64,000 nucleotides of DNA from an uncultured Oscillospiraceae bacterium (GTDB lineage: Bacteria; Bacillota; Clostridia; Oscillospirales; Oscillospiraceae). Within the stretch, counting starts at the first letter, position 1. Each line of letters begins with the position of its first letter. The notes below the pieces were generated by a model that saw only the letters and a list, made by a program, of their open reading frames with translations, searched no databases and had not been told where the DNA came from. This document shows, in pieces, positions 3,127 to 64,000 of this stretch. The stretch covers positions 20,476-84,475 of the forward strand of contig CAAEOT010000026.1 of assembly GCA_900757655.1 (NCBI GenBank), read 5' to 3'. Position numbers and translations under genes: made by a program.

Positions 3127-3204
3127 TTTTCATTTGGAATCGCAATCATAGGAACCCGCGCGGCTTGTGCCGGGACCATGCCCTTATGTGCCATGGCGAA
3201 GGGA

Positions 3205-3257
3205 ACAGAGCCGCGGGGGAGCTCGAGGGGGTAAGGCCCGCCTCGAATGAAATCTGG
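3205..3257 (+). repeat. Copy A of a recurrent ~45-nt GC-rich stem-loop element (ACAGAGCCGCGGGGGAGCTCGAGGGGGTAAGGCCCGCCTCG-AATGAAATCT)
   Basis: Near-identical to the copies at 49041, 49134 and 51616. Stem CGAGGGGG/CCCGCCTCG with compensatory changes between copies. Confidence 0.6.
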
Positions 3258-3265
3258 ATTTGAAG

Positions 3266-3340
3266 TCTGCCCCCAAAGCCCACATCGGGCTTTGGGGGCA
3301 GACTGAAAAAACCGCTCTGCATTTTGCAGAGCGGTTTTTT
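3266..3340. terminator. 17-bp perfect hairpin followed by a bidirectional rho-independent terminator between convergent mrp and the DUF2804 gene
   Basis: GTCTGCCCCCAAAGCCC-ACATC-GGGCTTTGGGGGCAGAC, then AAAAAACCGCTCTGCATTTTGCAGAGCGGTTTTTT. Confidence 0.7.
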
Positions 3341-9192: not shown

Positions 9193-10037
9193 ACTGGAAA
9201 ACGTATCTGAAAAAGAAAGGCGCGCGCGTCGGTGCGATCGTGGTCGCGGTCGTGCTCGTGCTCGCGCTCATCGCCGGGGCGCTCGGCGGCAGGGCGGGGT
9301 TCCTTACGAATCTCGACGGCATCGTGCGCGCGCCGCTGCAGAAGGCTGCGACCGTTACGGCGCAGTGGCTCGAGAGCATCTACGGCTACATTTATAAATA
9401 TGACCAGCTCAAGGCCGAAAACGAGCAGCTGCGCACGCAGCTGGCCGAGGCCCAGGCACAGGCGCGCGAGGGGCAGGAGGCGCTGGCGGAAAACGAGCGC
9501 TACCGGGACCTGCTGGGCTTCACCCAGCGGCACACGGACTTTGAGCTCGAGCCCGCGAACGTCGTGTCCTACGGCGCGTCGAACTGGTCGAGCACGCTCA
9601 CGCTCAGCAAGGGCAGCGACAGCGGCATCGCGGTCGGTGACTGCGTCATGAACGAGTCCGGTGCCCTCGTCGGTCAGGTCATCGAGACCGGCAGCACCTG
9701 GGCGACCGTGCGCACCGTCATCGACGTGGATATGAGCGTCGGCGGCTATATCAGCGGCAGCGGCGCGACGGCCATGGTCCTCGGCGACTTCACGCTCATG
9801 CAGCAGGGCTGCGTCCGCTTCGGCTATCTGGCCGAGGGCATGAGCATCTTCACCGGCGACACCGTGCTCACGTCCGGCAAGGGCGGCGCGTTCCCGGCGG
9901 GCCTCGTCGTCGGCACGATCACGGATGTGCGCACCGAGGCCGGCGGCCAGCAGACCTACGGCGTCATTACGCCCGCGTGTGACCTCGGCGAGCTGCTGCA
10001 GGTATTCGTCATCAAAGACTTTGACGTGGTGAGCTGA
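9144..10037 (+). CDS. mreC: Rod shape-determining protein MreC
   Basis: N-terminal TM, coiled-coil (LKAENEQLRTQLAEAQAQ), beta-rich C-terminal MreC domain. The ATG at 9144 overlaps maf by 49 nt, and an in-frame TTG at 9189 is an alternative start. Confidence 0.8.
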   Translation: MQAGTTAERTGSRVALNWKTYLKKKGARVGAIVVAVVLVLALIAGALGGRAGFLTNLDGIVRAPLQKAATVTAQWLESIYGYIYKYDQLKAENEQLRTQLAEAQAQAREGQEALAENERYRDLLGFTQRHTDFELEPANVVSYGASNWSSTLTLSKGSDSGIAVGDCVMNESGALVGQVIETGSTWATVRTVIDVDMSVGGYISGSGATAMVLGDFTLMQQGCVRFGYLAEGMSIFTGDTVLTSGKGGAFPAGLVVGTITDVRTEAGGQQTYGVITPACDLGELLQVFVIKDFDVVS

Positions 10038-35407: not shown

Positions 35408-37279
35408 TTACCGGCCGAAGCTGCTGTCGGTCGTTTCGTAGGTGTTGATGGCCGGCTGCGTGTCAGGCTCGCCGCCGTACTTGATCGAGTCGCCCTCGAG
35501 CAGCGGCTTGATGTCGTGCGCGCGCAGCCATGCAAGCGTGCGCGTGGAATCGGTCAGCGGGGTGTAGTCGACATTGGCGTAGGTCGTTTCGCCCGTTGCC
35601 GGGTCGTACTGGCTGAGCTGATAACCGATGGTCACGGCGTAGGCCGTGCTCTGCCGCGTGCCGCTGTCGGTCAGCCAGGCGCGGCCCATGGTGCCGTCCG
35701 CGCAGTCGGGCACGATGGCGTTTTCGTACAGGTCGAGCGCCTGCTCGGCCGTGAGCTCCATGTAGAGGTAGTCGCCGCTTTCGGTCTCATAGCCGATGTT
35801 TGTGTAGGTGAGGTGCTCGAGCGTCACGGCCAGCTCCGGCGTGTTGCGCGTGGCGCGCGCTTCGTCGCAGTTGAGCACCTGCTCGATCTGCGCCAGACGC
35901 GTGCTCGTGTCGGGGAGCGTGTATTCGCGCATCAGCACCTTACCGTTTGTGAGCTTGTAGGTCAGCTGCAGACTGGTGATGCTGGTGTCGTCCGTGATCT
36001 TTTCGCGCTCCGCCACGACGGCGCGGTGGATGTCCTCCACGGCCTGAATATTCTCCGCCTCGGTGAGCGCGGAGCTGTAACCGTTGCAGATGATGCGCGC
36101 GCTTTTGACCTGCGCGGTATCCGGGATGCGGCGGGCGTAGCCCGTGAGGTCGCACTTCGCGCCGACCACGACGAGGCAGCACACGGCCGCTGTGACCGCG
36201 CAGCCGCGCCAGACCGTGCGCGGGATGCGCAGGGACTTGCGGATGACCATCTCGCTGATGACAAAGCCGAGCGCCGCGCCGAGGACTGCCAGCAGCAGAA
36301 ACGGCGCCAGTTGCGTCCGGTAGGCCGGCACGTTGAGCAGCATGCCGTACACGCCGACCGGCATTGCCAGACCGGCGAAGAGCGCCACGATGTACTTCAG
36401 CACCGGCTTGAGCGCCGGGATGGCAACGGTGTCGCCCGCGCTCTCCATGCGGCGGCGCCGGTAGAGCTGACCCGCGCACACGAGCAGCAGCAGCGCGAAC
36501 GCCGCCCAGACGAGCGGATAGGTCCAGCCGGAGAAGCTGTTGACGGCGGCCTCTGTCCCCGTGCCGCTGATCGGGCGCAGCAGATAGTCGTTGTTGATGC
36601 TTGTGCGCCGCATGAACAGCACCAGCGGGGAGAGCCAGTCGACCGGCAGATCCACCATGCCCGACATGCCGTACACGAACATGTAGAGCACGGCCTCGAC
36701 AAGCAGCTGGAAGCCCACGGCGATGAAGTTCACGAGCAGGTACAGGCACGGCAGCATGACCACGTGGCCGGTGAACATGGCGCACAGCACGGCGATGCCG
36801 TAGAATACGACCGTCTCGAGCGCGAGTATGCCCAGCCAGATGAGCAGCGGCTCGATGACGAGTTCGAAACGCGTCGCCTCGATGAGCACGGCGAGGCCGA
36901 AGATCACGGCCTCGGCTGACAGCAGCATCACAAGGCCCGCCAGCAGATGCGTGCGGAACATGCACCCGCGCCGGATCGGCAGGGAGGCGGCCAGCCCCGC
37001 GCTGCGCGGCGTGTACAGATAGCCGAACATGGCGGCGGCTGCGAGCAGGCCCGCGCAAAACGCTGTCAGCGGCAGCAGCATCTGCGTCTCGGAGAGAATG
37101 ACGTTCGAGAGGTAGCTGATCTGCCCGGTCGACACATACGGTATCGTCGAGCGCGCGTTGAGCAGCGCACCTGGCAGCATGATAAACAGGATCACGCCGT
37201 AGATGACCCACAGCGGCCACCAGCGCGACAGGCATTTGCGAAATTCCGTCCCGTTACAGAAGGATGTCTTTGACGGCAT
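35408..37279 (-). CDS. ABC-2 type transporter permease with ~330-aa extracytoplasmic C-terminal domain
   Basis: Trimmed to the ATG at 37279 (GGGAGG RBS). Six predicted TM helices in the N-terminal 300 aa and a long soluble C-terminal domain with no recognisable enzyme motif. The start overlaps the ATPase gene. Confidence 0.65.
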   Translation of the reverse strand: MPSKTSFCNGTEFRKCLSRWWPLWVIYGVILFIMLPGALLNARSTIPYVSTGQISYLSNVILSETQMLLPLTAFCAGLLAAAAMFGYLYTPRSAGLAASLPIRRGCMFRTHLLAGLVMLLSAEAVIFGLAVLIEATRFELVIEPLLIWLGILALETVVFYGIAVLCAMFTGHVVMLPCLYLLVNFIAVGFQLLVEAVLYMFVYGMSGMVDLPVDWLSPLVLFMRRTSINNDYLLRPISGTGTEAAVNSFSGWTYPLVWAAFALLLLVCAGQLYRRRRMESAGDTVAIPALKPVLKYIVALFAGLAMPVGVYGMLLNVPAYRTQLAPFLLLAVLGAALGFVISEMVIRKSLRIPRTVWRGCAVTAAVCCLVVVGAKCDLTGYARRIPDTAQVKSARIICNGYSSALTEAENIQAVEDIHRAVVAEREKITDDTSITSLQLTYKLTNGKVLMREYTLPDTSTRLAQIEQVLNCDEARATRNTPELAVTLEHLTYTNIGYETESGDYLYMELTAEQALDLYENAIVPDCADGTMGRAWLTDSGTRQSTAYAVTIGYQLSQYDPATGETTYANVDYTPLTDSTRTLAWLRAHDIKPLLEGDSIKYGGEPDTQPAINTYETTDSSFGR

Positions 37280-38147
37280 AGTCTGCACCTCCCAATTCAT
37301 AAATAAAGATCTCCTCGAGCGTCAGCGGCACCACATCGAGGTACTGCGGCTGCGCGGTGGACAGCCGGTTCGTGACCTCGGCGGCGTCACCGTGCACGAT
37401 GAGCGTGTACAGGTGGCCCTGACTGCTCTGGTGCAGGATGTCGAGCCCCTCGGGCAGCTCTGTGCCGTCCGGCAGGGCCACGAGCACCTTGACGATGTTG
37501 GCCTGCAGCTCCGAGAGCGGGTGCTCGAGCAGGACCTTGCCGCCGTTCATGATGCCCACATGGTCGCACACGTCCTCGAGCTCGCGCAGGTTGTGCGACG
37601 AGATGAGCACGGTCGTGCCGTTTTCGGCCACATCGGCCAGCACGAGATTCCAGACCTGGCGGCGCATGACGGGGTCGAGCCCGTCGACCGGCTCGTCGAG
37701 GATGAGCACGTCCGGCCGCAGGCACATCGCCAGCCAGAACGCGGCCTGCTTCTGCATGCCCTTGGACAGGCGGCGGATCTGCCGCTTCGGATCGAGCTGA
37801 AACACCTCGCCGAGCTTCTGATAGCGTTCGGCGTCGAACTTCGGGTAGATGCCGCGGTAGTAGCGCATCATGTCCGGGATCGTCGCCTGCGGGAAATAGA
37901 ACACGTCGTCCGGGATGTAAGCGATGCGCGCCTTGACGGCCGGGTTTTCGTACACGGGCTGGCCGTCGATGTCGATCACGCCGCTGTCCGGGCGGTAGAT
38001 GCCCGTCAGATGGCGGATGAGCGTGGACTTGCCCGCGCCGTTCGGCCCGACGAGGCCGTACACCGCGCCGCGCGGCACGGTCATGGTCACGCCGTCGAGC
38101 GCGCGGAAGCCGTCAAACGTTTTGACGACGTCTTTGACTTCAATCAT
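37254..38147 (-). CDS. ABC transporter ATP-binding protein
   Basis: Trimmed to MIEVKDVVKTF.. (AAGGAGG RBS). Walker A GPNGAGKST, signature LSKGMQKQ, Walker B ILDEP. Confidence 0.85.
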   Translation of the reverse strand: MIEVKDVVKTFDGFRALDGVTMTVPRGAVYGLVGPNGAGKSTLIRHLTGIYRPDSGVIDIDGQPVYENPAVKARIAYIPDDVFYFPQATIPDMMRYYRGIYPKFDAERYQKLGEVFQLDPKRQIRRLSKGMQKQAAFWLAMCLRPDVLILDEPVDGLDPVMRRQVWNLVLADVAENGTTVLISSHNLRELEDVCDHVGIMNGGKVLLEHPLSELQANIVKVLVALPDGTELPEGLDILHQSSQGHLYTLIVHGDAAEVTNRLSTAQPQYLDVVPLTLEEIFIYELGGADYAVKDILL

Positions 38148-48299: not shown

Positions 48300-48761
48300 A
48301 TGTGGAAAACCGTTGCGCCGGCGGCGGCAGTGCTGACAGCCGAGGCGGTCATCCGGCGCAAGATCAACGCCCTGCCGGCCGAGACCTTCCCGCTGCGCAT
48401 CGGGCGGCGCGTGCAGCTGCGCCGGGCGCACAACCGCGGCCTGCTGTGCAGCAAGCTCGCGCAAAAGCCGCGGGCGGCCGCTGCGCTGCAGACTGTGTCT
48501 GCTGCTGCGCTCGCGGCCATGGCGGCCGTGTGTGTCTGCCGCCGGAGCGGCACGGCGCTGCAGATCGGCATGGGCCTGATGCTCGGCGGCGCGCTGGCCA
48601 ACCTCATCGAGCGCTGGGCGCGCGGGTCGGTCACGGACTATGTGTACCTGCCGCGTGCGGTCATCCCGTTTTTCCGGCGCATCATCTGGAACGCGGCCGA
48701 CCTGAGCGTCCTGACCGGCTGCATCACGGCAGTGATCGCACTGCTGTGCGAAAAATTGTAA
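48300..48761 (+). CDS. lspA: Lipoprotein signal peptidase (signal peptidase II)
   Basis: Trimmed to MWKTVAPAAAVL.. (GGAGGAAA RBS). LspA motifs GGALANLIERW..GSVTDYV and FFRRIIWNAADLSV (asparagine/aspartate catalytic pair). Confidence 0.75.
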   Translation: MWKTVAPAAAVLTAEAVIRRKINALPAETFPLRIGRRVQLRRAHNRGLLCSKLAQKPRAAAALQTVSAAALAAMAAVCVCRRSGTALQIGMGLMLGGALANLIERWARGSVTDYVYLPRAVIPFFRRIIWNAADLSVLTGCITAVIALLCEKL

Positions 48762-48935
48762 TTATGTCAACTAAATTATGTAAATTTATTTGGCAAAGTA
48801 ACAAAGGCTCAAAATGGATGAAAATGTAGCATAATACTGCGTATTGTGACGGATAAGGTATTCGTTTTATTGTTGCATATACAAAATTATGTAAACTAGA
48901 ATTATGTAAACAAATTGGGCGCACTAACAAAGCCT
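48762..48935. repeat. AT-rich iteron module duplicated about 115 bp apart: ATTATGT(C/A)AA-N4/5-ATTATGTAAA ... TTGG(C/G) ... TAACAAAG(G/C)C
   Basis: ATTATGTCAA at 48762, ATTATGTAAA at 48775, 48886 and 48901. TAACAAAGGC at 48799 and TAACAAAGCC at 48925. Confidence 0.55.
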
Positions 48936-49040
48936 TCCCCTTGAGGGGAAGGTGCCGAGCTGTGTTCGGCGGATGAGGTGGAAAGGTTACGTTTTCCCCG
49001 GCGCCTTCGGCAGTGCGGTGCATTCCATAAGGTATCTGCG

Positions 49041-49074
49041 CAGCAGGGGAGCACGAGGGGGCAAGGCCCTCTCG
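49041..49074 (+). repeat. Copy B of the recurrent GC-rich stem-loop element
   Basis: GCAGCAGGGGAGCACGAGGGGGCAAGGCCCTCTCG. Confidence 0.6.
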
Positions 49075-49133
49075 TAAGAAATCGAGCTGTTTTTTGGCAG
49101 CGGTACACCCAGCCGCAAAATATTCCGTCCATA

Positions 49134-49178
49134 GAGCAGCAGGGGAGCACGAGGGGGCAAGGTCCGCCTCGTAATGGA
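49134..49178 (+). repeat. Copy C of the recurrent GC-rich stem-loop element (followed by a 13-bp perfect hairpin, a second hairpin and a terminator)
   Basis: GAGCAGCAGGGGAGCACGAGGGGGCAAGGTCCGCCTCG-TAATGGATTC. Confidence 0.6.
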
Positions 49179-49258
49179 TTCGGCTATCTTTTTGCCTTTC
49201 AGACAAAAAGATAGCCCCTTGCTCCAACATCGGAACAAGGGGCTATCCTGCCGTGTTC

Positions 49259-49295
49259 GGTTCCATCACCAGAACCTCCTTTTGTTTTCTTTTCC
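49259..49295 (+). terminator. Plus-strand intrinsic terminator inside the non-coding island
   Basis: GGTTC-CATCACCA-GAACC followed by TCCTTTTGTTTTCTTTTCC. Confidence 0.5.
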
Positions 49296-49519
49296 TGCCG
49301 TGTGCAGAGGTTTCGCGCTGCACGCGGACTCCGACCGCCGGGAAGGAACATGCGTTTGCAAGATTCCGCACCACTGCGTGCCGTCTCCGGAATGACAGAA
49401 CCCTGTCTGCTTCCGGACGATTCAGTACATCGGACTCACCTCCATCGATTGCGCTGAACCTGTATTCTAAAGGCGCTGCCCCTCGTGAGGGGCTGCTGCT
49501 CTTCTCTGGTTCTGGCTAC

Positions 49520-49548
49520 AGTATAGCAGTGCGTCTTCTTTTTGTCAA
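49520..49548 (-). promoter_or_regulatory. Consensus sigma-70 promoter on the minus strand (TTGACA-17-TATACT) firing leftward into the non-coding island
   Basis: Plus-strand TGTCAA at 49543-49548 and AGTATA at 49520-49525, with exactly 17 nt between them. Confidence 0.5.
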
Positions 49549-49717
49549 TGATTTAATTAACAAAAATTGAATGAAATGTTCAGTAAAAACGCCGAATTTT
49601 TCACTGCCTCGTGCCAACGCCCCTGCATGCGGGGCGCTGGCAAATCCTCCGCGCGGCGCGCAAAAGGAAAACCGCCGTGCGTGTCCGTCGGCGCACAGCG
49701 GCAGCAGCTTCGGTTCA

Positions 49718-49777
49718 GCGGTCGCTCGGAGCGGCGCTCTGGCCGCCGAAGATCCAGTCGTCGAGGTCCTGGCCCAT
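49718..49777 (-). CDS. Candidate 20-codon sORF (MGQDLDDWIFGGQSAAPSDR) with strong Shine-Dalgarno
   Basis: GGGAGGTGaaaacacATG, in-frame TGA at 49715-49717. Not in the ORF track because it is below 60 aa. Confidence 0.25.
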
Positions 49778-49870
49778 GTGTTTTCACCTCCCGGATGATT
49801 CGCATACGGCCATTGTATGTGCCGCGGCGCGAAAAAATGCACGAACCGGCGCAGCCGAACTAGAAAGAAC

Positions 49871-49899
49871 TTGAAACCGTCGGCCGTTTGCGCTATAAT
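49871..49899 (+). promoter_or_regulatory. Consensus sigma-70 promoter for the PpiC-type isomerase gene (TTGAAA-17-TATAAT); leader contains the palindrome TTTCCGGAAA
   Basis: TTGAAA at 49871-49876 and TATAAT at 49894-49899. Palindrome TTTTCCGGAAAC at about 49908-49919. Confidence 0.55.
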
Positions 49900-49972
49900 C
49901 TATGCATATTTTCCGGAAACGGAGCCTGTCTCCGCGGGCAACACTATTTTCAAAGGATAAGGTGAATCACGA

Positions 49973-51544
49973 ATGAGTGCATCCCAGGACAAGAAGCGCC
50001 GCACAGATGAGCGTGCGCTGGGCACGGAGCGCCGCCAGGTCGCCTCGCAGAAGGAAGCCAAAGAGCGCAAGCAAAGCAAGATCAAGTGGACGGTCGGCTC
50101 GATCATCGTCGTGCTGCTCGTTGCCGCGATTCTGATCGGCAACTCCAGCCTCTTTTACACCGCGCGCCCCGCGCTGCAGGTCGGCGATGTGAAGTATTCC
50201 TCGGCCGAGGTCAATTACGCCTACCGCACGGCCTACCTCTCGTTCTGCAACCAGTACGGCAACTATCTGACCTATGTCAAGCTGGACACCAGCAAGCCGC
50301 TCGATGAGCAGGAATGCGGCATCAGTGACGAGTTTGACACCTGGGACGATTATTTCCGGGACGCTGCCGAGAAGAATCTGGTGCAGGTCACGGCGCTGTG
50401 CGATGCCGCCGAGAAGGCCGGCGTCTCGCTCGACGAGGACGACCAGCACGAGGTCGATGAGCAGTTTTCCTACATCGAGCTCGCTGCCAAGCAGTATAAG
50501 TACAACTCCGTCAGCAAGTATCTCCAGGCGGCCTACGGCAACGGCGTGACCAAGAAGGTCGTGCGCCACATGCTCGAGATGAGCCAGCTTGCTACGAAGT
50601 ATTCGCAGCAGCAGTACGATAGCTACACCTACACGCCCGAGCAGATCGCAGCGAGCTACGCCGAGAAAAAGGACAGCTACGACACGTTCAGCTATCAGTA
50701 CTACTTCGTCCAGGCCGACACGGAAGATACCACGGACGACGACGGCAACACCTCTGCCAAGACCACGGACGCCACGATGGCGGCCGCCAAGGCCACGGCC
50801 GACAAGATCGCCGCTGCCACGCATGATGCGGACAGCTTCACTGCCGCCGTCACGGCAAACGTGCCCGCCAAGGAGTCCGAGGACGGCACGACCACTGCGC
50901 CGAGCGTCACGGACAATACCGACACCAAGGGCTCGGGCTTCAGCTCCGCCGTGTACGCCGACTGGCTCTACAGCGCCGACCGCCACGCCAATGACGTGAC
51001 CGTCGTGGAGCAGGAGAACAGCGGCTACTACGTCGTGCTCTTCGAGAGCCGCGATGATAATACCTATAATACCGTCAATGTCCGCCATATCCTCATCAAG
51101 GCCGAGGACAGCGACAGCGACGGCACGTATTCCGATGACGACAAGAAGAAGGCCAAGGACGCGATCGACGATGTCTATGAGCGCTGGACGCAGAGCGACC
51201 AGACCGAGGACGACTTCGCACAGCTGGCCAATTCCTTCAGCCAGGACAGCGGCTCGAACACCAAGGGCGGCCTGTATGAGAACGTCTACAAGGGCCAGAT
51301 GGTGCAGGAGTTCAACGATTTCTGCTTTGACCCCGCGCGCAAGCCGGGTGACGTGGGCATCGTCTTCAATGAGAGCGATTCCTACTGCGGCTACCACCTC
51401 GTGTACTACGTCGGTCAGGGCGAGCGCTACTGCGATTACCTTGGCGATCAGGCGCTGCGCACGGCGGACTTCAATGAATGGGAGAGCACGTTCTTCGACG
51501 GCTGGACCAGCACCGAGCTCAAGGGCATGAAGTACGTCGGATAA
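49973..51544 (+). CDS. PpiC-type (parvulin) peptidyl-prolyl cis-trans isomerase, membrane-anchored, PrsA/SurA-like foldase
   Basis: N-terminal TM (IIVVLLVAAILIG). Parvulin domain VNVRHILIK...GYHLVYYVG near the C-terminus. Long acidic linker. Confidence 0.75.
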   Translation: MSASQDKKRRTDERALGTERRQVASQKEAKERKQSKIKWTVGSIIVVLLVAAILIGNSSLFYTARPALQVGDVKYSSAEVNYAYRTAYLSFCNQYGNYLTYVKLDTSKPLDEQECGISDEFDTWDDYFRDAAEKNLVQVTALCDAAEKAGVSLDEDDQHEVDEQFSYIELAAKQYKYNSVSKYLQAAYGNGVTKKVVRHMLEMSQLATKYSQQQYDSYTYTPEQIAASYAEKKDSYDTFSYQYYFVQADTEDTTDDDGNTSAKTTDATMAAAKATADKIAAATHDADSFTAAVTANVPAKESEDGTTTAPSVTDNTDTKGSGFSSAVYADWLYSADRHANDVTVVEQENSGYYVVLFESRDDNTYNTVNVRHILIKAEDSDSDGTYSDDDKKKAKDAIDDVYERWTQSDQTEDDFAQLANSFSQDSGSNTKGGLYENVYKGQMVQEFNDFCFDPARKPGDVGIVFNESDSYCGYHLVYYVGQGERYCDYLGDQALRTADFNEWESTFFDGWTSTELKGMKYVG

Positions 51545-51615
51545 ATCAGACACACGTCAGAGCCGCCCGCCGGGCGGCTCTGTGTCTATCGCAAAGTGCG
51601 GACGCACCATGTTGA

Positions 51616-51667
51616 CAGAGCAGCGGGGGAGCTCGAGGGGGCGAAGCGCCCGCCTCGAATGAGATTC
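51616..51667 (+). repeat. Copy D of the recurrent GC-rich stem-loop element (followed by hairpins at 51672-51705 and 51710-51732 and a terminator-like hairpin at 51735-51761)
   Basis: ACAGAGCAGCGGGGGAGCTCGAGGGGGCGAAGCGCCCGCCTCG-AATGAGATTC. The flanking sequence GAGCCGCCCG occurs at both 51561 and 51726. Confidence 0.6.
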
Positions 51668-51784
51668 TATTCGTCAGGCATATTTGCTGTGCAAAATGCC
51701 TGACGGTGACGGCTTGCTCTCTGAGCAAGCCGGGAGCCGCCCGAACAGGACGGCTCTTTTTCAACTTTCCATGGAGGGGCAGAT

Positions 51785-51946
51785 ATGACCAGAACAAAAA
51801 CACAGCGCTACGACACGACCGTGCTCGATGCGCGCGCCCTTGCCGATGCGCTTGAGGCAGAGGCTAAGGCCGGCTGGGAGGTCGCGGAGGCGGGCTATGA
51901 CGGCACGGATTTCGTCGTGACCTTTGAGCGGGAGGGCGCGCTATGA
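51785..51946 (+). CDS. Small hypothetical protein (53 aa, possibly DUF4177-like), translationally coupled to tcdA
   Basis: GGAGGGG RBS. MTRTKTQRYDTTVLDARALADALEAEAKAGWEVAEAGYDGTDFVVTFEREGAL. Its stop overlaps the tcdA ATG (ATGA). Confidence 0.5.
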   Translation: MTRTKTQRYDTTVLDARALADALEAEAKAGWEVAEAGYDGTDFVVTFEREGAL

Positions 51947-59105: not shown

Positions 59106-59181
59106 GGGAGCATAGCTCAGCCGGGAGAGCACTTGCCTTACAAGCAAGGGGTCACAGGTTCGAGCCCTGTTGTTCCCACCA
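59106..59181 (+). tRNA. tRNA-Val (anticodon TAC)
   Basis: GGGAGCA acceptor, anticodon stem CTTGC / loop CTTACAA / GCAAG, T-arm GGTTCGAGCCC, 3' CCA encoded. Confidence 0.85.
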
Positions 59182-59198
59182 GTTTTTCAATTACATAC

Positions 59199-59274
59199 GC
59201 CTCTGTAGCTCAGTTGGTAGAGCAGGGGACTGAAAATCCCCGTGTCGTTGGTTCGATTCCGACCGGAGGCACCA
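59199..59274 (+). tRNA. tRNA-Phe (anticodon GAA)
   Basis: GCCTCTGTAGCTCAGTTGGTAGAGC, anticodon loop CTGAAAA, T-arm GGTTCGATTCC, CCA encoded. Confidence 0.85.
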
Positions 59275-59278
59275 TTTT

Positions 59279-59354
59279 GCGGGCATAGCTCATTTGGCAG
59301 AGCGCCACCTTGCCAAGGTGGAGGTAGCGAGTTCGAATCTCGTTGCCCGCTCCA
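59279..59354 (+). tRNA. tRNA-Gly (anticodon GCC)
   Basis: GCGGGCATAGCTCATTTGGCAGAGC, anticodon stem CCACC / loop TTGCCAA / GGTGG, T-arm AGTTCGAATCT, CCA encoded. Confidence 0.85.
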
Positions 59355-59360
59355 TTTTTT

Positions 59361-59434
59361 GGCGCCATAGCCAAGTGGTAAGGCATGGGACTGCAAATCC
59401 TTGACCCCCGGTTCAAATCCGGGTGGCGCCTCCA
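59361..59434 (+). tRNA. tRNA-Cys (anticodon GCA)
   Basis: GGCGCCATAGCCAAGTGGTAAGGC, anticodon loop CTGCAAA, T-arm GGTTCAAATCC, CCA encoded. Confidence 0.8.
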
Positions 59435-62300: not shown

Positions 62301-62460
62301 ACAGAAGAATCCGTAATTGTTTATGTTAACTTTGCGCAGTTACACCCGAAAACGACAGCAAAACACATTTTGTTACTGTTTTTTAACTTTTGATGTAACC
62401 GGTTCCGGCCGGGCGCGCAGAGAGATCCCGGGCGGGGGAGCCGCCCGATGAGGGGCTAGG

Positions 62461-64000
62461 GTATGAAGAAATCGTTTATGGAGCGTCTGGCGGCGTTCAT
62501 TGTGGACAAGCGGCGGCTGTTCGTGGTGCTGTTTGCCGTGGCGTGCGTGCTGTCGATCTTCTCGGCGAGCAAGACGGACGTCAACAATGAGCTGACCGAT
62601 TATCTGCCGGACTCCACGCAGACGCGCCAGGGTCTGGAGATCATGAACCGCGAGTTCATCACCTACGGGGATGCGAAGGTCATGGTGTCCAATGTGACGC
62701 TTGCGCAGGCGGAGGAGCTTGCCGAGATGCTGCGCGGTGTGGACGGTGTCAAGGACGTGGTGTTTGAAAAAGACACACACCATTATAATAGTGCCTCGGC
62801 GCTCTTTGAGGTCACGTTCGACGGGGAAAAGCTCGACGAGATCAGCATTCAGGGCGTGAAGAACGTCCGTGCGGCGCTCGACGGCTATGATACCTATATC
62901 ACAACGGAGGTCGGCAACCCGACCGGCGAGATCCTTGAGCGCGAGATGCGCATCGTGCTCATCATCCTCATGTGCTCCATCTTCGTGGTGCTCCTGCTCA
63001 CGAGCCACACCTACGCGGAGGTCCCGGTGCTTATCATCACCTTCGGCGTGGCCGTCTGGGTCAACAAAGGCACGAACTACTGGTTCCATGAAGTCTCGTT
63101 CATCACCAACTCCATCGCGGCGGTGCTTCAGCTCGGTCTCGGCATCGACTACGCGATCATCATGTGCCACCACTACACGGAAGAGCGCGAGCATCTCGAG
63201 CCCCGTGAGGCGACCATCCGCGCGCTGACGCTGGCCATTCCGGAAATCTCGGCCTCGAGCCTGACGACGATCTCGGGTTTGCTTGCGCTCTCGTTCATGA
63301 AGATCAAGATCGGCGAGGACATGAGCCTCGTGCTCATCAAGTCGATCCTGTTTCTGATGCTGACGGTGTTCTTCCTCATGCCGGCGCTCATCATGTATAT
63401 GAGCCCGTGGATTGACAGAACGCACCATCGCCAGTTCCTGCCGCGCATCGATGCGCTCGGCCGCTTTGCCATCCGCAGCCGCTACATCGTGCCGCCGATC
63501 TTTCTGGTCATCATCATCGCGGGCTTCCTGCTCAGCAGCAAGTGCCCGTACGTGTTCGGCTACAGCACGCTCGACACCATCAAGCAAAACGACTACAAGA
63601 TCGCCGAAAAGAAGATCAACGCCACCTTCGGCGAGACGAACCAGGTCGTGCTCATCTTCCCGTTCACAGACTTTGAGAGCGAGGCAGATCTGCTTGATGA
63701 CCTCAATGAGCTCAAGGGTGTTGATCACATTCAGGCGCTCGCGGACGAGGAGGCCAAGGACGGCTACATGGTCACCGACTCGCTCACGCCGCGCAAGTTT
63801 GCCGAGCTCACGGACATCGACATCGGCGTGTCGCGCGCGCTGTACACGGCCTACTGCACTGCGAATGACGATTACACGAAGGCCATCGGCCAGCTCGTGG
63901 ATCTGAGCAATATCGACAACTGCTCCGTGCCGCTCATTAACATGTTCAAGTTCCTGTATGAGCAGCGCGATATTTACCGCTCGAAGATCGACGCTGCGAC
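62461..64000 (+). CDS. MMPL/RND-superfamily transporter (5' 513 codons; continues beyond window end)
   Basis: MKKSFMERLAAFIVDKRRLFVVLFAVACVL.. N-terminal TM, periplasmic-like loop, then a TM bundle (..GLGIDYAIIMCHHY..) and a second soluble loop. No stop in the window. Absent from the ORF track for that reason. Confidence 0.7.

Follow-up and report, generated by a model that had tools for sequence, protein, structure and literature searches.

The window, by which we mean the whole stretch of DNA analysed here, comprises 64,000 nt from an uncultured Oscillospiraceae bacterium (GenBank assembly GCA_900757655.1, contig CAAEOT010000026.1, positions 20,476 to 84,475), and our subject is the 1.2-kb intergenic island at its positions 48762-49972. 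Gut Oscillospiraceae are abundant and mostly uncultured, and to our knowledge almost no non-coding RNAs (ncRNAs) or micro-proteins have been annotated in them. The island is flanked by a gene of the LspA family, most likely at 48301-48761 (+) and encoding a Peptidase_A8 domain, and by a ppiC-type gene at 49973-51544, encoding a PPIC-type rotamase domain. These are the flanks named by a first-pass annotation of the sequence, which also noted the lower GC content (by our measurement 0.475-0.57 within the island, compared to 0.60-0.67 outside), four AT-rich iterons and two copies of a recurrent GC-rich stem-loop. It read the region as gene-free and structured, representing either a very long lspA 3'-untranslated region or one or two convergent or antisense ncRNAs of 300-700 nt. 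In our analysis this account is partly supported: its observations are largely correct, but its interpretation in terms of a single RNA is not. What it missed are a 20-codon gene, the likeness of the iterons to Xer recombination sites, and the nature of the GC stem-loops as a dispersed family. As we argue below, the island is probably a mosaic of independent elements rather than one transcript.

With the ppiC-type protein as query we collected 41 loci from species-level genomes, the informative ones all Oscillospiraceae or Clostridiales metagenome-assembled genomes. The island is common to eight of these protein-anchored loci (L001-L008), whose ppiC-type proteins are 83-94% identical to that of the window. 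The comparison with relatives that had been proposed for the entire region gave a divided result in BLAST searches and alignments: 49127-49972 aligns end to end in the eight genomes, at 79-94% identity, whereas 48762-49130 does not align to the relatives, the differences there being entire repeat units. Scanning metagenomes for two motifs of the conserved part, GAGGTGAGTCC and CGGAAGCAGA, both of which had to be present, gave matches in at least 119 contigs (L042-L160), mostly from human gut. Among those listed, 109 contain the region at 83-99.7% identity, while 10 have no BLAST match to it and were discarded as chance matches to the pattern. Together with the protein-anchored loci this yields at least 117 homologous loci, which fall into two subclades. 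In the 105 loci with both ends among the matches listed, the spacer between lspA and the first terminator of the conserved part measures 118-545 nt and holds 1-6 iterons and 0-3 GC elements; the version in the window (446 nt, four iterons, two GC elements) is one state among many. Judged from these alignments, the right two thirds of the island (49200-49972) are conserved in a genus-level clade of gut Oscillospiraceae, and the left third (48745-49216) is hypervariable.

The island contains eight promoter-like sites, compared to 0.9 +/- 1.1 in shuffled sequences. Among them is the minus-strand TTGACA-17-TATACT promoter reported in the first-pass annotation, which we find at 49548-49520 together with a TG extension. 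Terminator-like matches are not enriched as a class (five, against 3.1 +/- 1.9 in shuffles), and the outstanding one is a minus-strand 19-bp stem with a T-run at 49249-49208. On the basis of such signals, the conserved core 49200-49972 would comprise three transcription units, namely a minus-strand RNA, a minus-strand mini-gene and the plus-strand promoter and leader of the ppiC-type gene, with the following parts:

49520-49548, minus strand: predicted RNA promoter, TTGACA, 17 nt, TG-n-TATACT, with an AT-rich upstream tract; 11/12 match plus TG
49200-49513, minus strand: putative RNA gene of about 312 nt (49513 to 49202), its 5' end placed 7 nt past the -10 box, its 3' end in the T-run
49242-49281, minus strand: AAGGAGG and a putative 7-codon open reading frame (ORF), ATG GAA CCG AAC ACG GCA GGA TAG (MEPNTAG), read from the sequence
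49200-49249, minus strand: intrinsic terminator closing the RNA (19-bp stem, 4-nt loop), followed by TTTTTGTC; -32.1 kcal/mol
49812-49842, minus strand: promoter-like motif of the mini-gene, GCATTTT, 14 nt, CATACAAT; recurs 5' of homologues in L013, L014 and L028
49715-49777, minus strand: 20-codon gene encoding MGQDLDDWIFGGQSAAPSDR, with the Shine-Dalgarno (SD) sequence GGGAGGTG; supported by homologues and substitution pattern
49662-49701, minus strand: terminator of the mini-gene, CCGCTGTGCG...CGCACGGCGG followed by TTTTCCTTTT; seen in the sequence and kept in L001-L008
49871-49972, plus strand: promoter TTGAAA-17-TATAAT and 5' leader of the ppiC-type gene; 11/12 match, kept in L001-L008 and L028

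The RNA unit would be driven by a near-consensus housekeeping promoter of the extended -10 type and closed by a very stable intrinsic terminator. Neither the two promoter hexamers nor the AT-rich tract upstream of them changes within L001-L008, whereas the 17-nt spacer between the hexamers does, a pattern typical of promoters that work. The terminator corresponds to the hairpin AGCCCCTT...AAGGGGCT of the first-pass annotation, which is indeed present, with 19 pairs, a T-run and about -32 kcal/mol, and acts, in our reading, as a strong terminator on the minus strand. Also confirmed are the two hairpins described as sharing an arm (49182-49197/49201-49216 and 49210-49225/49232-49247). The first of these, referred to here as hairpin A, overlaps the RNA terminator over the T-run and the bottom 7 bp, and it is because of this overlap that the two folds appear mutually exclusive; hairpin A is a perfect palindrome of different sequence in each of three lineages, including L002 and L005. 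The unit thus possesses its own promoter and its own intrinsic terminator, on the same strand and in the correct order, as is required of a stand-alone small RNA (sRNA). This accounts for one of the ncRNAs that had been envisaged; for a convergent RNA on the plus strand we found no support. The plus-strand terminator that had been placed at 49259-49295 is a 5-bp stem with an 8-nt loop (49259-49276), belongs to a class that does not exceed shuffles, and coincides with the hairpin around the SD sequence and start codon in the minus-strand RNA.

Conservation is uneven along the unit. Between the two subclades, identity reaches 86% in the core of the RNA, 94% in the segment with the SD-led ORF and 95% in the terminator, against 65% in the 5' segment (about 50 nt) and 60% in the middle segment; fourfold-degenerate sites of ppiC are 80% identical. 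Compared with the 5' and middle segments of the RNA, conservation is significantly higher in its core, in its 3' part and in the promoter hexamers, and it is on this unevenness that the case for selection on the RNA is built. A coding role of the RNA body was ruled out: homologues differ by frame-breaking indels of 1, 2 and 5-6 nt, and the variable columns are spread over the codon phases as 21:22:22, with no 3-nt periodicity. The Rfam check that had been suggested for OLE, ROOL, GOLLD, raiA and 6S, here covering riboswitches as well, returned no family at any threshold. At the gathering threshold, Rfam 15 yielded four tRNAs and nothing else in the whole window, and in E-value mode, for both strands of the island, the RNA alone and the L005 homologue, just chance-level matches to the terminator hairpin. 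As ARAGORN found no transfer-messenger RNA (tmRNA) either, and the repeats of the island occur singly elsewhere, the earlier statement that the region is not tmRNA, RNase P RNA, signal recognition particle RNA or an array of clustered regularly interspaced short palindromic repeats (CRISPR) holds. The four tRNAs form a cluster at 59106-59434 (+), with Val-TAC, Phe-GAA, Gly-GCC and Cys-GCA.

The RNA is predicted to fold into five or six hairpins, with a folding z-score of -6.3 when the terminator is included. It contains a C/U-rich stretch, UUCCUUCCC or UUUCCCUUCAC, and two invariant SD-like motifs. One of them, GGAGGUGA, lies in a predicted hairpin loop and is followed, as read from the sequence, 5 nt later by AUG-UAC-UGA; the other belongs to the 7-codon mini-ORF, and the consensus fold pairs GCCUUU with AAAGG of this SD sequence. 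The UAG stop codon of the mini-ORF is located inside the 5' arm of the terminator, and across the 75 unique homologues among the matches listed, the mini-ORF varies in codon 5 alone (ACG/ACC/ATG). This arrangement resembles an attenuator, yet the two hallmarks of a riboswitch or attenuator, a competing antiterminator and a regulated gene downstream, were both absent: no segment of the RNA body pairs with the 5' arm of the terminator beyond shuffled arms (17-59 of 200 shuffles were as good), and further along the minus strand there is no gene to regulate, just the repeats and lspA in antisense. Likewise, a search for trans targets of the RNA within the 64-kb window revealed no complementarity above chance.

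The second minus-strand unit is a mini-gene with its own promoter and terminator, as judged from its sequence signals. The claim that the island lacks any believable ORF does not stand, as the frame at 49777-49715 (-) is conserved and shows a third-position excess; the conserved coding frame that was named as a refutation of the RNA idea is therefore present, but it takes up just 63 of the 1,211 bases. The 20-codon peptide is kept, with synonymous changes, in all close relatives, and homologues of 18-20 residues (for example MDIDDLIFGDYNPGPSQK, MEFDIDDLIFGDADPGPSAR and MEKDVDDLIFGDEDPGPSNR) adjoin ppiC in genera whose ppiC product is 40-45% identical. They occur in L009-L014, L017, L020, L022, L024, L028 and L030, at most about 1.2 kb from the ppiC-type gene and, in the other genera, in all cases on the strand opposite to it, and follow the consensus M-x0-2-D-[LIV]-D-D-[WL]-I-F-G-x3-[PAS]-[GA]-P-S-x-[RK]. 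Pairwise substitutions fall on the three codon positions as 133:96:256, and nine residues are invariant over seven variants from several genera, with the invariant glycine using four different codons. A conserved frame, an excess of synonymous and third-position changes and an SD sequence are what one expects of a protein-coding gene. The peptide has no Pfam or NCBIfam family. Its upstream motif, GCATwtt-N14-CATAcAAT, retains a fixed 14-nt spacing in several genera. The -10 box lies inside an inverted repeat, GCATAC...GTATGC, and the homologues from other genera share kCATAtt-N14-CATAnAAT within the same inverted repeat. The motif resembles mother-cell sporulation promoters, and a sporulation sigma factor of the E or K type may recognise it.

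The variable left part of the island and the related repeats elsewhere in the window consist of the following:

48745-48772, plus strand: dif-like 28-mer no. 1, TGTGCGAAAAA-TTGTAA-TTATGTCAACT; right arm 10/11 to the B. subtilis XerD arm
48776-48786, plus strand: additional XerD-arm-like iteron TTATGTAAATT; 10/11, 3 nt past 28-mer no. 1
48870-48897, plus strand: 28-mer no. 2, TTGTTGCATAT-ACAAAA-TTATGTAAACT, resembling dif or a XerD-only site; XerD arm 11/11
48902-48912, plus strand: additional XerD-arm-like iteron TTATGTAAACA; 10/11, 4 nt past 28-mer no. 2
48933-48970, no strand assigned: two hairpins of the iteron unit of about 125 nt, CCTTCCCCTTGAGGGGAAGG and CCGAGCTGTGTTCGG, from sequence and hairpin scan
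49031-49083, plus strand: GC stem-loop resembling repetitive extragenic palindromic (REP) elements, copy 1, from repeat comparison
49127-49181, plus strand: REP-like GC stem-loop, copy 2, from repeat comparison; 0-3 copies at the locus in relatives, among the matches listed
49182-49216, no strand assigned: palindrome GGCTATCTTTTTG...CAAAAAGATAGCC (hairpin A), from inverted-repeat scan
3204-3255, plus strand: REP-like copy downstream of a ParA/Mrp-like gene, from repeat comparison
51610-51667, plus strand: REP-like copy downstream of the ppiC-type gene, from repeat comparison

The four iterons noted previously are of the type AATTATGTAAA, at 48760, 48774, 48885 and 48900, where 0.05 would be expected by chance. 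They are part of a unit of about 125 nt, present in 1-3 copies in relatives, which also includes the perfect hairpin CCTTCCCC-TTGA-GGGGAAGG that had been described and that we locate at 48933-48952. The dif site of B. subtilis reads ACTTCCTAGAA-TATATA-TTATGTAAACT (PMC3025954), and 48887-48897 is identical to its XerD arm (11/11, using the dif sequences of that source). The arm TTATGTCAACT resembles the Frankia arm TTATGTCAAGT as well. With up to one mismatch, the 64-kb window contains five XerD-type arms, against 0.06 expected. The left arm of 28-mer no. 1 falls in the last codons of lspA and its central 6 bp include the lspA stop codon; this left arm agrees with the E. coli XerC arm at 8/11 positions (hand count). 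With pairing at 4/6 palindromic positions, the 28-mer is weak as a full dif. Each of the two 28-mers is followed, 3-4 nt further on, by another arm in direct repeat, and even the L005-L007 subclade retains a lone arm directly 3' of the lspA stop codon. In the definition given in PMC9226527, a XerD-only site (XDS) combines a bona fide XerD arm with an inverted copy of its inner 5 bp, the two separated by a degenerate 5-6-bp spacer. Measured against this definition, 48876-48897, CATAT-ACAAAA-TTATGTAAACT, has an inverted inner half-site matching at 4/5 positions. This half-site is weaker in the commonest type of relative (L002), and the pattern CATAW-N6-TTATGTAAAC is found in 22 of 160 loci, among the matches listed. 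The fifth arm, TTATGTTAACT at 62321-62331 (+), sits in a 440-bp spacer 5' of a large ORF starting at 62464 and its left arm (CGTAA, 4-nt spacer) is unconvincing. Two loci with XerD arms within 14 kb of each other could point to a region where such sites are frequent. Whether the iterons are recognised by a Xer-family recombinase is, from their sequence, about an even question, and we would treat the resemblance as a lead rather than proven membership.

A scan of viral contigs for tandem TTATGTAAAC arrays gave 46 matches, compared to 28 and 24 for two shuffled motifs. Since shuffled motifs match so often, the signal is mostly background, and the idea that the iterons are a special phage motif was abandoned. 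One contig of the viral collection (L193), which looks chromosomal (GC 0.51, housekeeping genes), carries at 9360-9420 the sequence AATTGATTGAA-ACCTAA-TTATGTCAATA followed by two more TTATGTAAA arms, the same layout of arms as in the window at 48745-48786. Four low-GC viral contigs of 13.7-14.9 kb (L161, L168, L172 and L183) have four TTATGTAA(A/C)C iterons with a 14-15-bp period in their first 90 nt or so, and L168 also ends with these iterons, in inverted orientation, in its last 90 nt or so; placed at the contig ends in this way, they might serve a linear element as terminal inverted repeats.

The GC stem-loops were confirmed: an identical 27-mer occurs at 49040 and again at 49136, against 0.00 copies expected, and the further copies of the element are those at 3204-3255 and 51610-51667. 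All four copies in the window are on the plus strand, and relatives contain copies at no fewer than three distinct loci. Their consensus is ACAGAGCAGCnGGGGAGC-[nCGAGGGGG-loop-CCCnCCTCGn]-AAkGrrAT, and pairs at the base of the stem are swapped between loci, from A-U to U-A and from C-G to U-A. Within about 10 nt 3' of each copy there is a long hairpin of unrelated sequence, which at the lspA locus is hairpin A; those at 3264-3307 and 51672-51707 are each followed by a terminator. The element has no match in Rfam. With several dispersed intergenic copies and a conserved hairpin, it behaves, by repeat comparison, like a dispersed repeat of the REP type and not like a component of a single RNA. 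At its 5' end (49479-49502), the minus-strand RNA contains AGAGCAGCAG...GAGGGG, a 24-nt inverted near-copy of the start of the element (49040-49060, 49133-49156). Because this match is confined to the subclade of the window and absent in the L005 subclade, we regard it as probably REP-derived rather than as a functional pairing. The idea of a CRISPR system or a trans-activating CRISPR RNA, suggested by the same match, was dropped for that absence and for the single occurrence of the repeats elsewhere; two copies 96 nt apart here and single copies behind other genes do not form a CRISPR array, and no cas domains were detected in the 40 window proteins scanned. An origin from a phage or plasmid was also rejected: no plasmid matched, and the single phage match was a short one to the REP element, in a 4.7-kb "phage" record. 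At 51785-51946 (+), just 5' of a ThiF-family gene, a 53-codon ORF with a good SD sequence and without Pfam family is preceded by a REP-like element, then a hairpin and a terminator.

The account that we prefer, and hold to be the probable one, joins these elements without merging them. In the variable part 48745-49216, units of two kinds, amplified locally, would form an array: the AT-rich one of about 125 nt with its XerD-arm-type iterons, probably bound by a Xer-family tyrosine recombinase, and the REP-like GC hairpin, in units of 96-122 nt, which is also found 3' of other genes. Unequal exchange or slippage between the repeats would alter their copy number. In the conserved core, the minus-strand RNA is most likely a stand-alone, trans-acting regulatory sRNA specific to the genus-level clade, a reading favoured by the lack of an antiterminator, the very strong terminator, the lack of a target in the window and the lack of copies near ppiC in other genera. 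Its action could rest on base pairing, or on contact with ribosomes or with a protein. We infer its function and fold, and likewise the Xer assignment of the iterons, from sequence comparison. A more far-reaching version combines three proposals: that the iterons are a working Xer array, either the dif of the clade or a cluster of XerD-only sites, in which Xer-mediated unequal exchange resizes the ~125-bp units; that the RNA engages ribosomes through its two SD-led mini-ORFs; and that the 18-20-residue cross-genus protein is expressed in sporulation. As a joint claim on these sequences, we think it improbable.

Several of our own results weigh against the preferred account. The invariance of GAGGTGAGTCC and CGGAAGCAGA in L042-L160 is partly one by construction, because the scan pattern demanded both; the two motifs are also invariant in the protein-anchored loci L001-L008. 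Over its whole length, the RNA is 82% identical between subclades, no higher than the 80% at fourfold sites. Among the matches listed, its homologues are all at least 83% identical, and in 75 unique sequences that are all too similar (83% or more), a single compensatory change was seen among about 85 predicted pairs. The RNA body alone reaches a z-score of -3.0 in the window and -1.4 in the L005 homologue, a weak structural support, and its opposite strand scores -2.1. A covariance model detected no copy of the RNA within 6 kb of ppiC in 33 loci of other genera. Regarding the Xer assignment, positions 7-12 of a dif site should form more than four complementary pairs with positions 17-22 (PMC3025954), and both 28-mers have 4/6 (hand count). 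Rather than a single copy, the locus has four arms, to which 62321 adds a fifth, and relatives have as many as six. Neither a GC-skew switch nor a switch in gene orientation occurs in the 64 kb, a window too short to place the terminus; the gene content of the window, ordinary housekeeping genes, gives no support for a terminus either.

Other explanations have been considered for each part. For the iterons, the competing view is that, instead of being Xer sites, they serve a local transcription factor as operators or as pieces of a promoter, or else are footprints of a mobile element with iteron ends. Each iteron pair indeed flanks a TAGAAT-like -10 box, 18 nt past a TTGCAT-like -35 (TTGCAT-18-TAGAAT can be read at 48873-48902), several weak promoter-like matches overlap the iterons, and some of the 46 tandem arrays in viral contigs are at inverted contig ends. 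However, the promoter-like reading is weakened because the -10 box changes in relatives (TGGAAT, TTGTAT, CTGAAT) while the iterons stay; the viral signal suffers from the background described above, and an 11/11 identity to the XerD arm combined with a 6-bp spacer and a CATAT half-site is hard to obtain by chance. We consider this view unlikely, though not to be dismissed lightly. For the RNA unit, one may ask whether it is a decaying remnant, left by a lost gene of which the promoter, the leader and the first codons persist, still transcribed and functionless. The overall divergence at the level of fourfold sites, the poor covariation and the confinement to one clade would all be compatible with decay, but the significantly higher conservation of hexamers, core and 3' part, and the presence of the intact unit in at least 117 loci of two subclades, argue for function, such that a remnant appears improbable.

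The near-invariance of the SD sequence, the start codon and the stop codon within the terminator stem could alternatively reflect a cis-acting attenuator, in which a structured sensor hides or exposes AAGGAGG, and a ribosome on the stop codon of the mini-ORF masks the 5' arm of the terminator, leading to a read-through antisense RNA over the repeats and lspA. The GCCUUU-AAAGG pairing of the consensus fold and the convergence of the unit on lspA, with no ORF downstream, would fit this scheme, and riboswitch-controlled antisense RNAs are known. Against it stand the pairing to the terminator arm, no better than with shuffled arms, a terminator of -32 kcal/mol, far stronger than typical switchable ones, the loss of the closing stem in the L005 subclade, and the failure of any known aptamer in Rfam to match, and we rate an attenuator as quite improbable. 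The original proposal of a long structured lspA 3'-untranslated region, or of a plus-strand ncRNA ending at the weak terminator at 49259-49295, is in our estimate very unlikely. In its favour, lspA lacks a terminator of its own, as had been pointed out and as our terminator scan of the island confirmed for the plus strand immediately 3' of the gene; the plus strand folds with a z-score of -4.5 at 48900-49300; and every REP-like element lies on the same strand as the gene upstream of it. But the region 3' of lspA is the least conserved, with 48762-49130 changing in length by whole repeat units, the supposed terminator stem is 5 bp long, and the conserved promoter and terminator, with the T-run and a stability dependent on G-U pairs, point to the minus strand. 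We therefore return to the mosaic of independent elements.

Two neighbouring genes deserve mention. In the LspA-family protein (48301-48761) the sequence ...ANLIERW... is found where, as we take it, canonical signal peptidase II has its catalytic Asp (N-x-x-D-R), and the protein may be a divergent paralogue of signal peptidase II. At 35411-37300 (-), adjoining an ABC ATPase gene, there is a 630-residue ORF with gene-like codon usage and no Pfam match at E <=1e-5.

Considered together, the spacer yields three candidates: an RNA gene of about 312 nt, an 18-20-residue protein shared across genera and a copy-variable array of XerD type. These findings fill gaps in annotation and do not overturn current understanding; they do illustrate that what looks like a "structured island" can be several small, ordinary elements side by side. 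If the array is what it resembles, it would represent a natural case of recombinase sites amplified in tandem, and a handy strain marker. Should the joint reading of Xer sites, ribosome-engaging RNA and sporulation protein prove true, a single spacer would contain three unannotated functional elements.

The repeat array, the RNA gene, the micro-protein gene and the promoter are each of a known kind, and each departs from its known counterparts in some respects. In the case of the mini-gene the counterpart is SpoVM, a very small sporulation protein of 26 aa. Both are products of fewer than 30 aa, the mini-gene has its own SD sequence, and its promoter motif resembles those of mother-cell sigma factors, one of which may recognise it; its product, however, is acidic rather than an amphipathic membrane helix and has no sequence similarity to SpoVM. 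The REP-like element shares with REP sequences and bacterial interspersed mosaic elements, as we know them, an imperfect hairpin that is short, rich in GC and accompanied by a conserved flank, a dispersed occurrence 3' of genes and a locally variable copy number. It differs from them in sequence, in the conserved single-stranded 17-nt motif ACAGAGCAGCnGGGGAGC that stands 5' of its hairpin, in the variable long hairpin that always follows, and in the single orientation of its four copies. With dif, the iteron sites have in common the right arm, which equals the XerD arm of B. subtilis, a 6-bp spacer and an inverted CATAT half-site; unlike dif, they are multi-copy and tandem, their left arm pairs at 4/6 positions where more than four are asked, and the window bears no signature of the terminus. 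XerD-only sites, which unload SMC in the terminus region of B. subtilis (Karaboja 2021, as summarised in PMC9226527), are another counterpart, and 48876-48897 broadly follows their layout of arm, spacer and inverted half-site; compared to the sites described there, the half-site in the window has one mismatch, and the arms are paired 3-4 nt apart on amplified units of about 125 nt.

Finally, the minus-strand RNA is comparable to the stand-alone sRNAs of Firmicutes, of which we take SR1 and RNAIII to be dual-function examples. It is longer than most base-pairing sRNAs and unrelated to Rfam families, yet it has the same general build, with its own promoter and terminator, an intergenic position, a length of several hundred nt, several predicted hairpins, a possible tiny ORF and a C/U-rich stretch.

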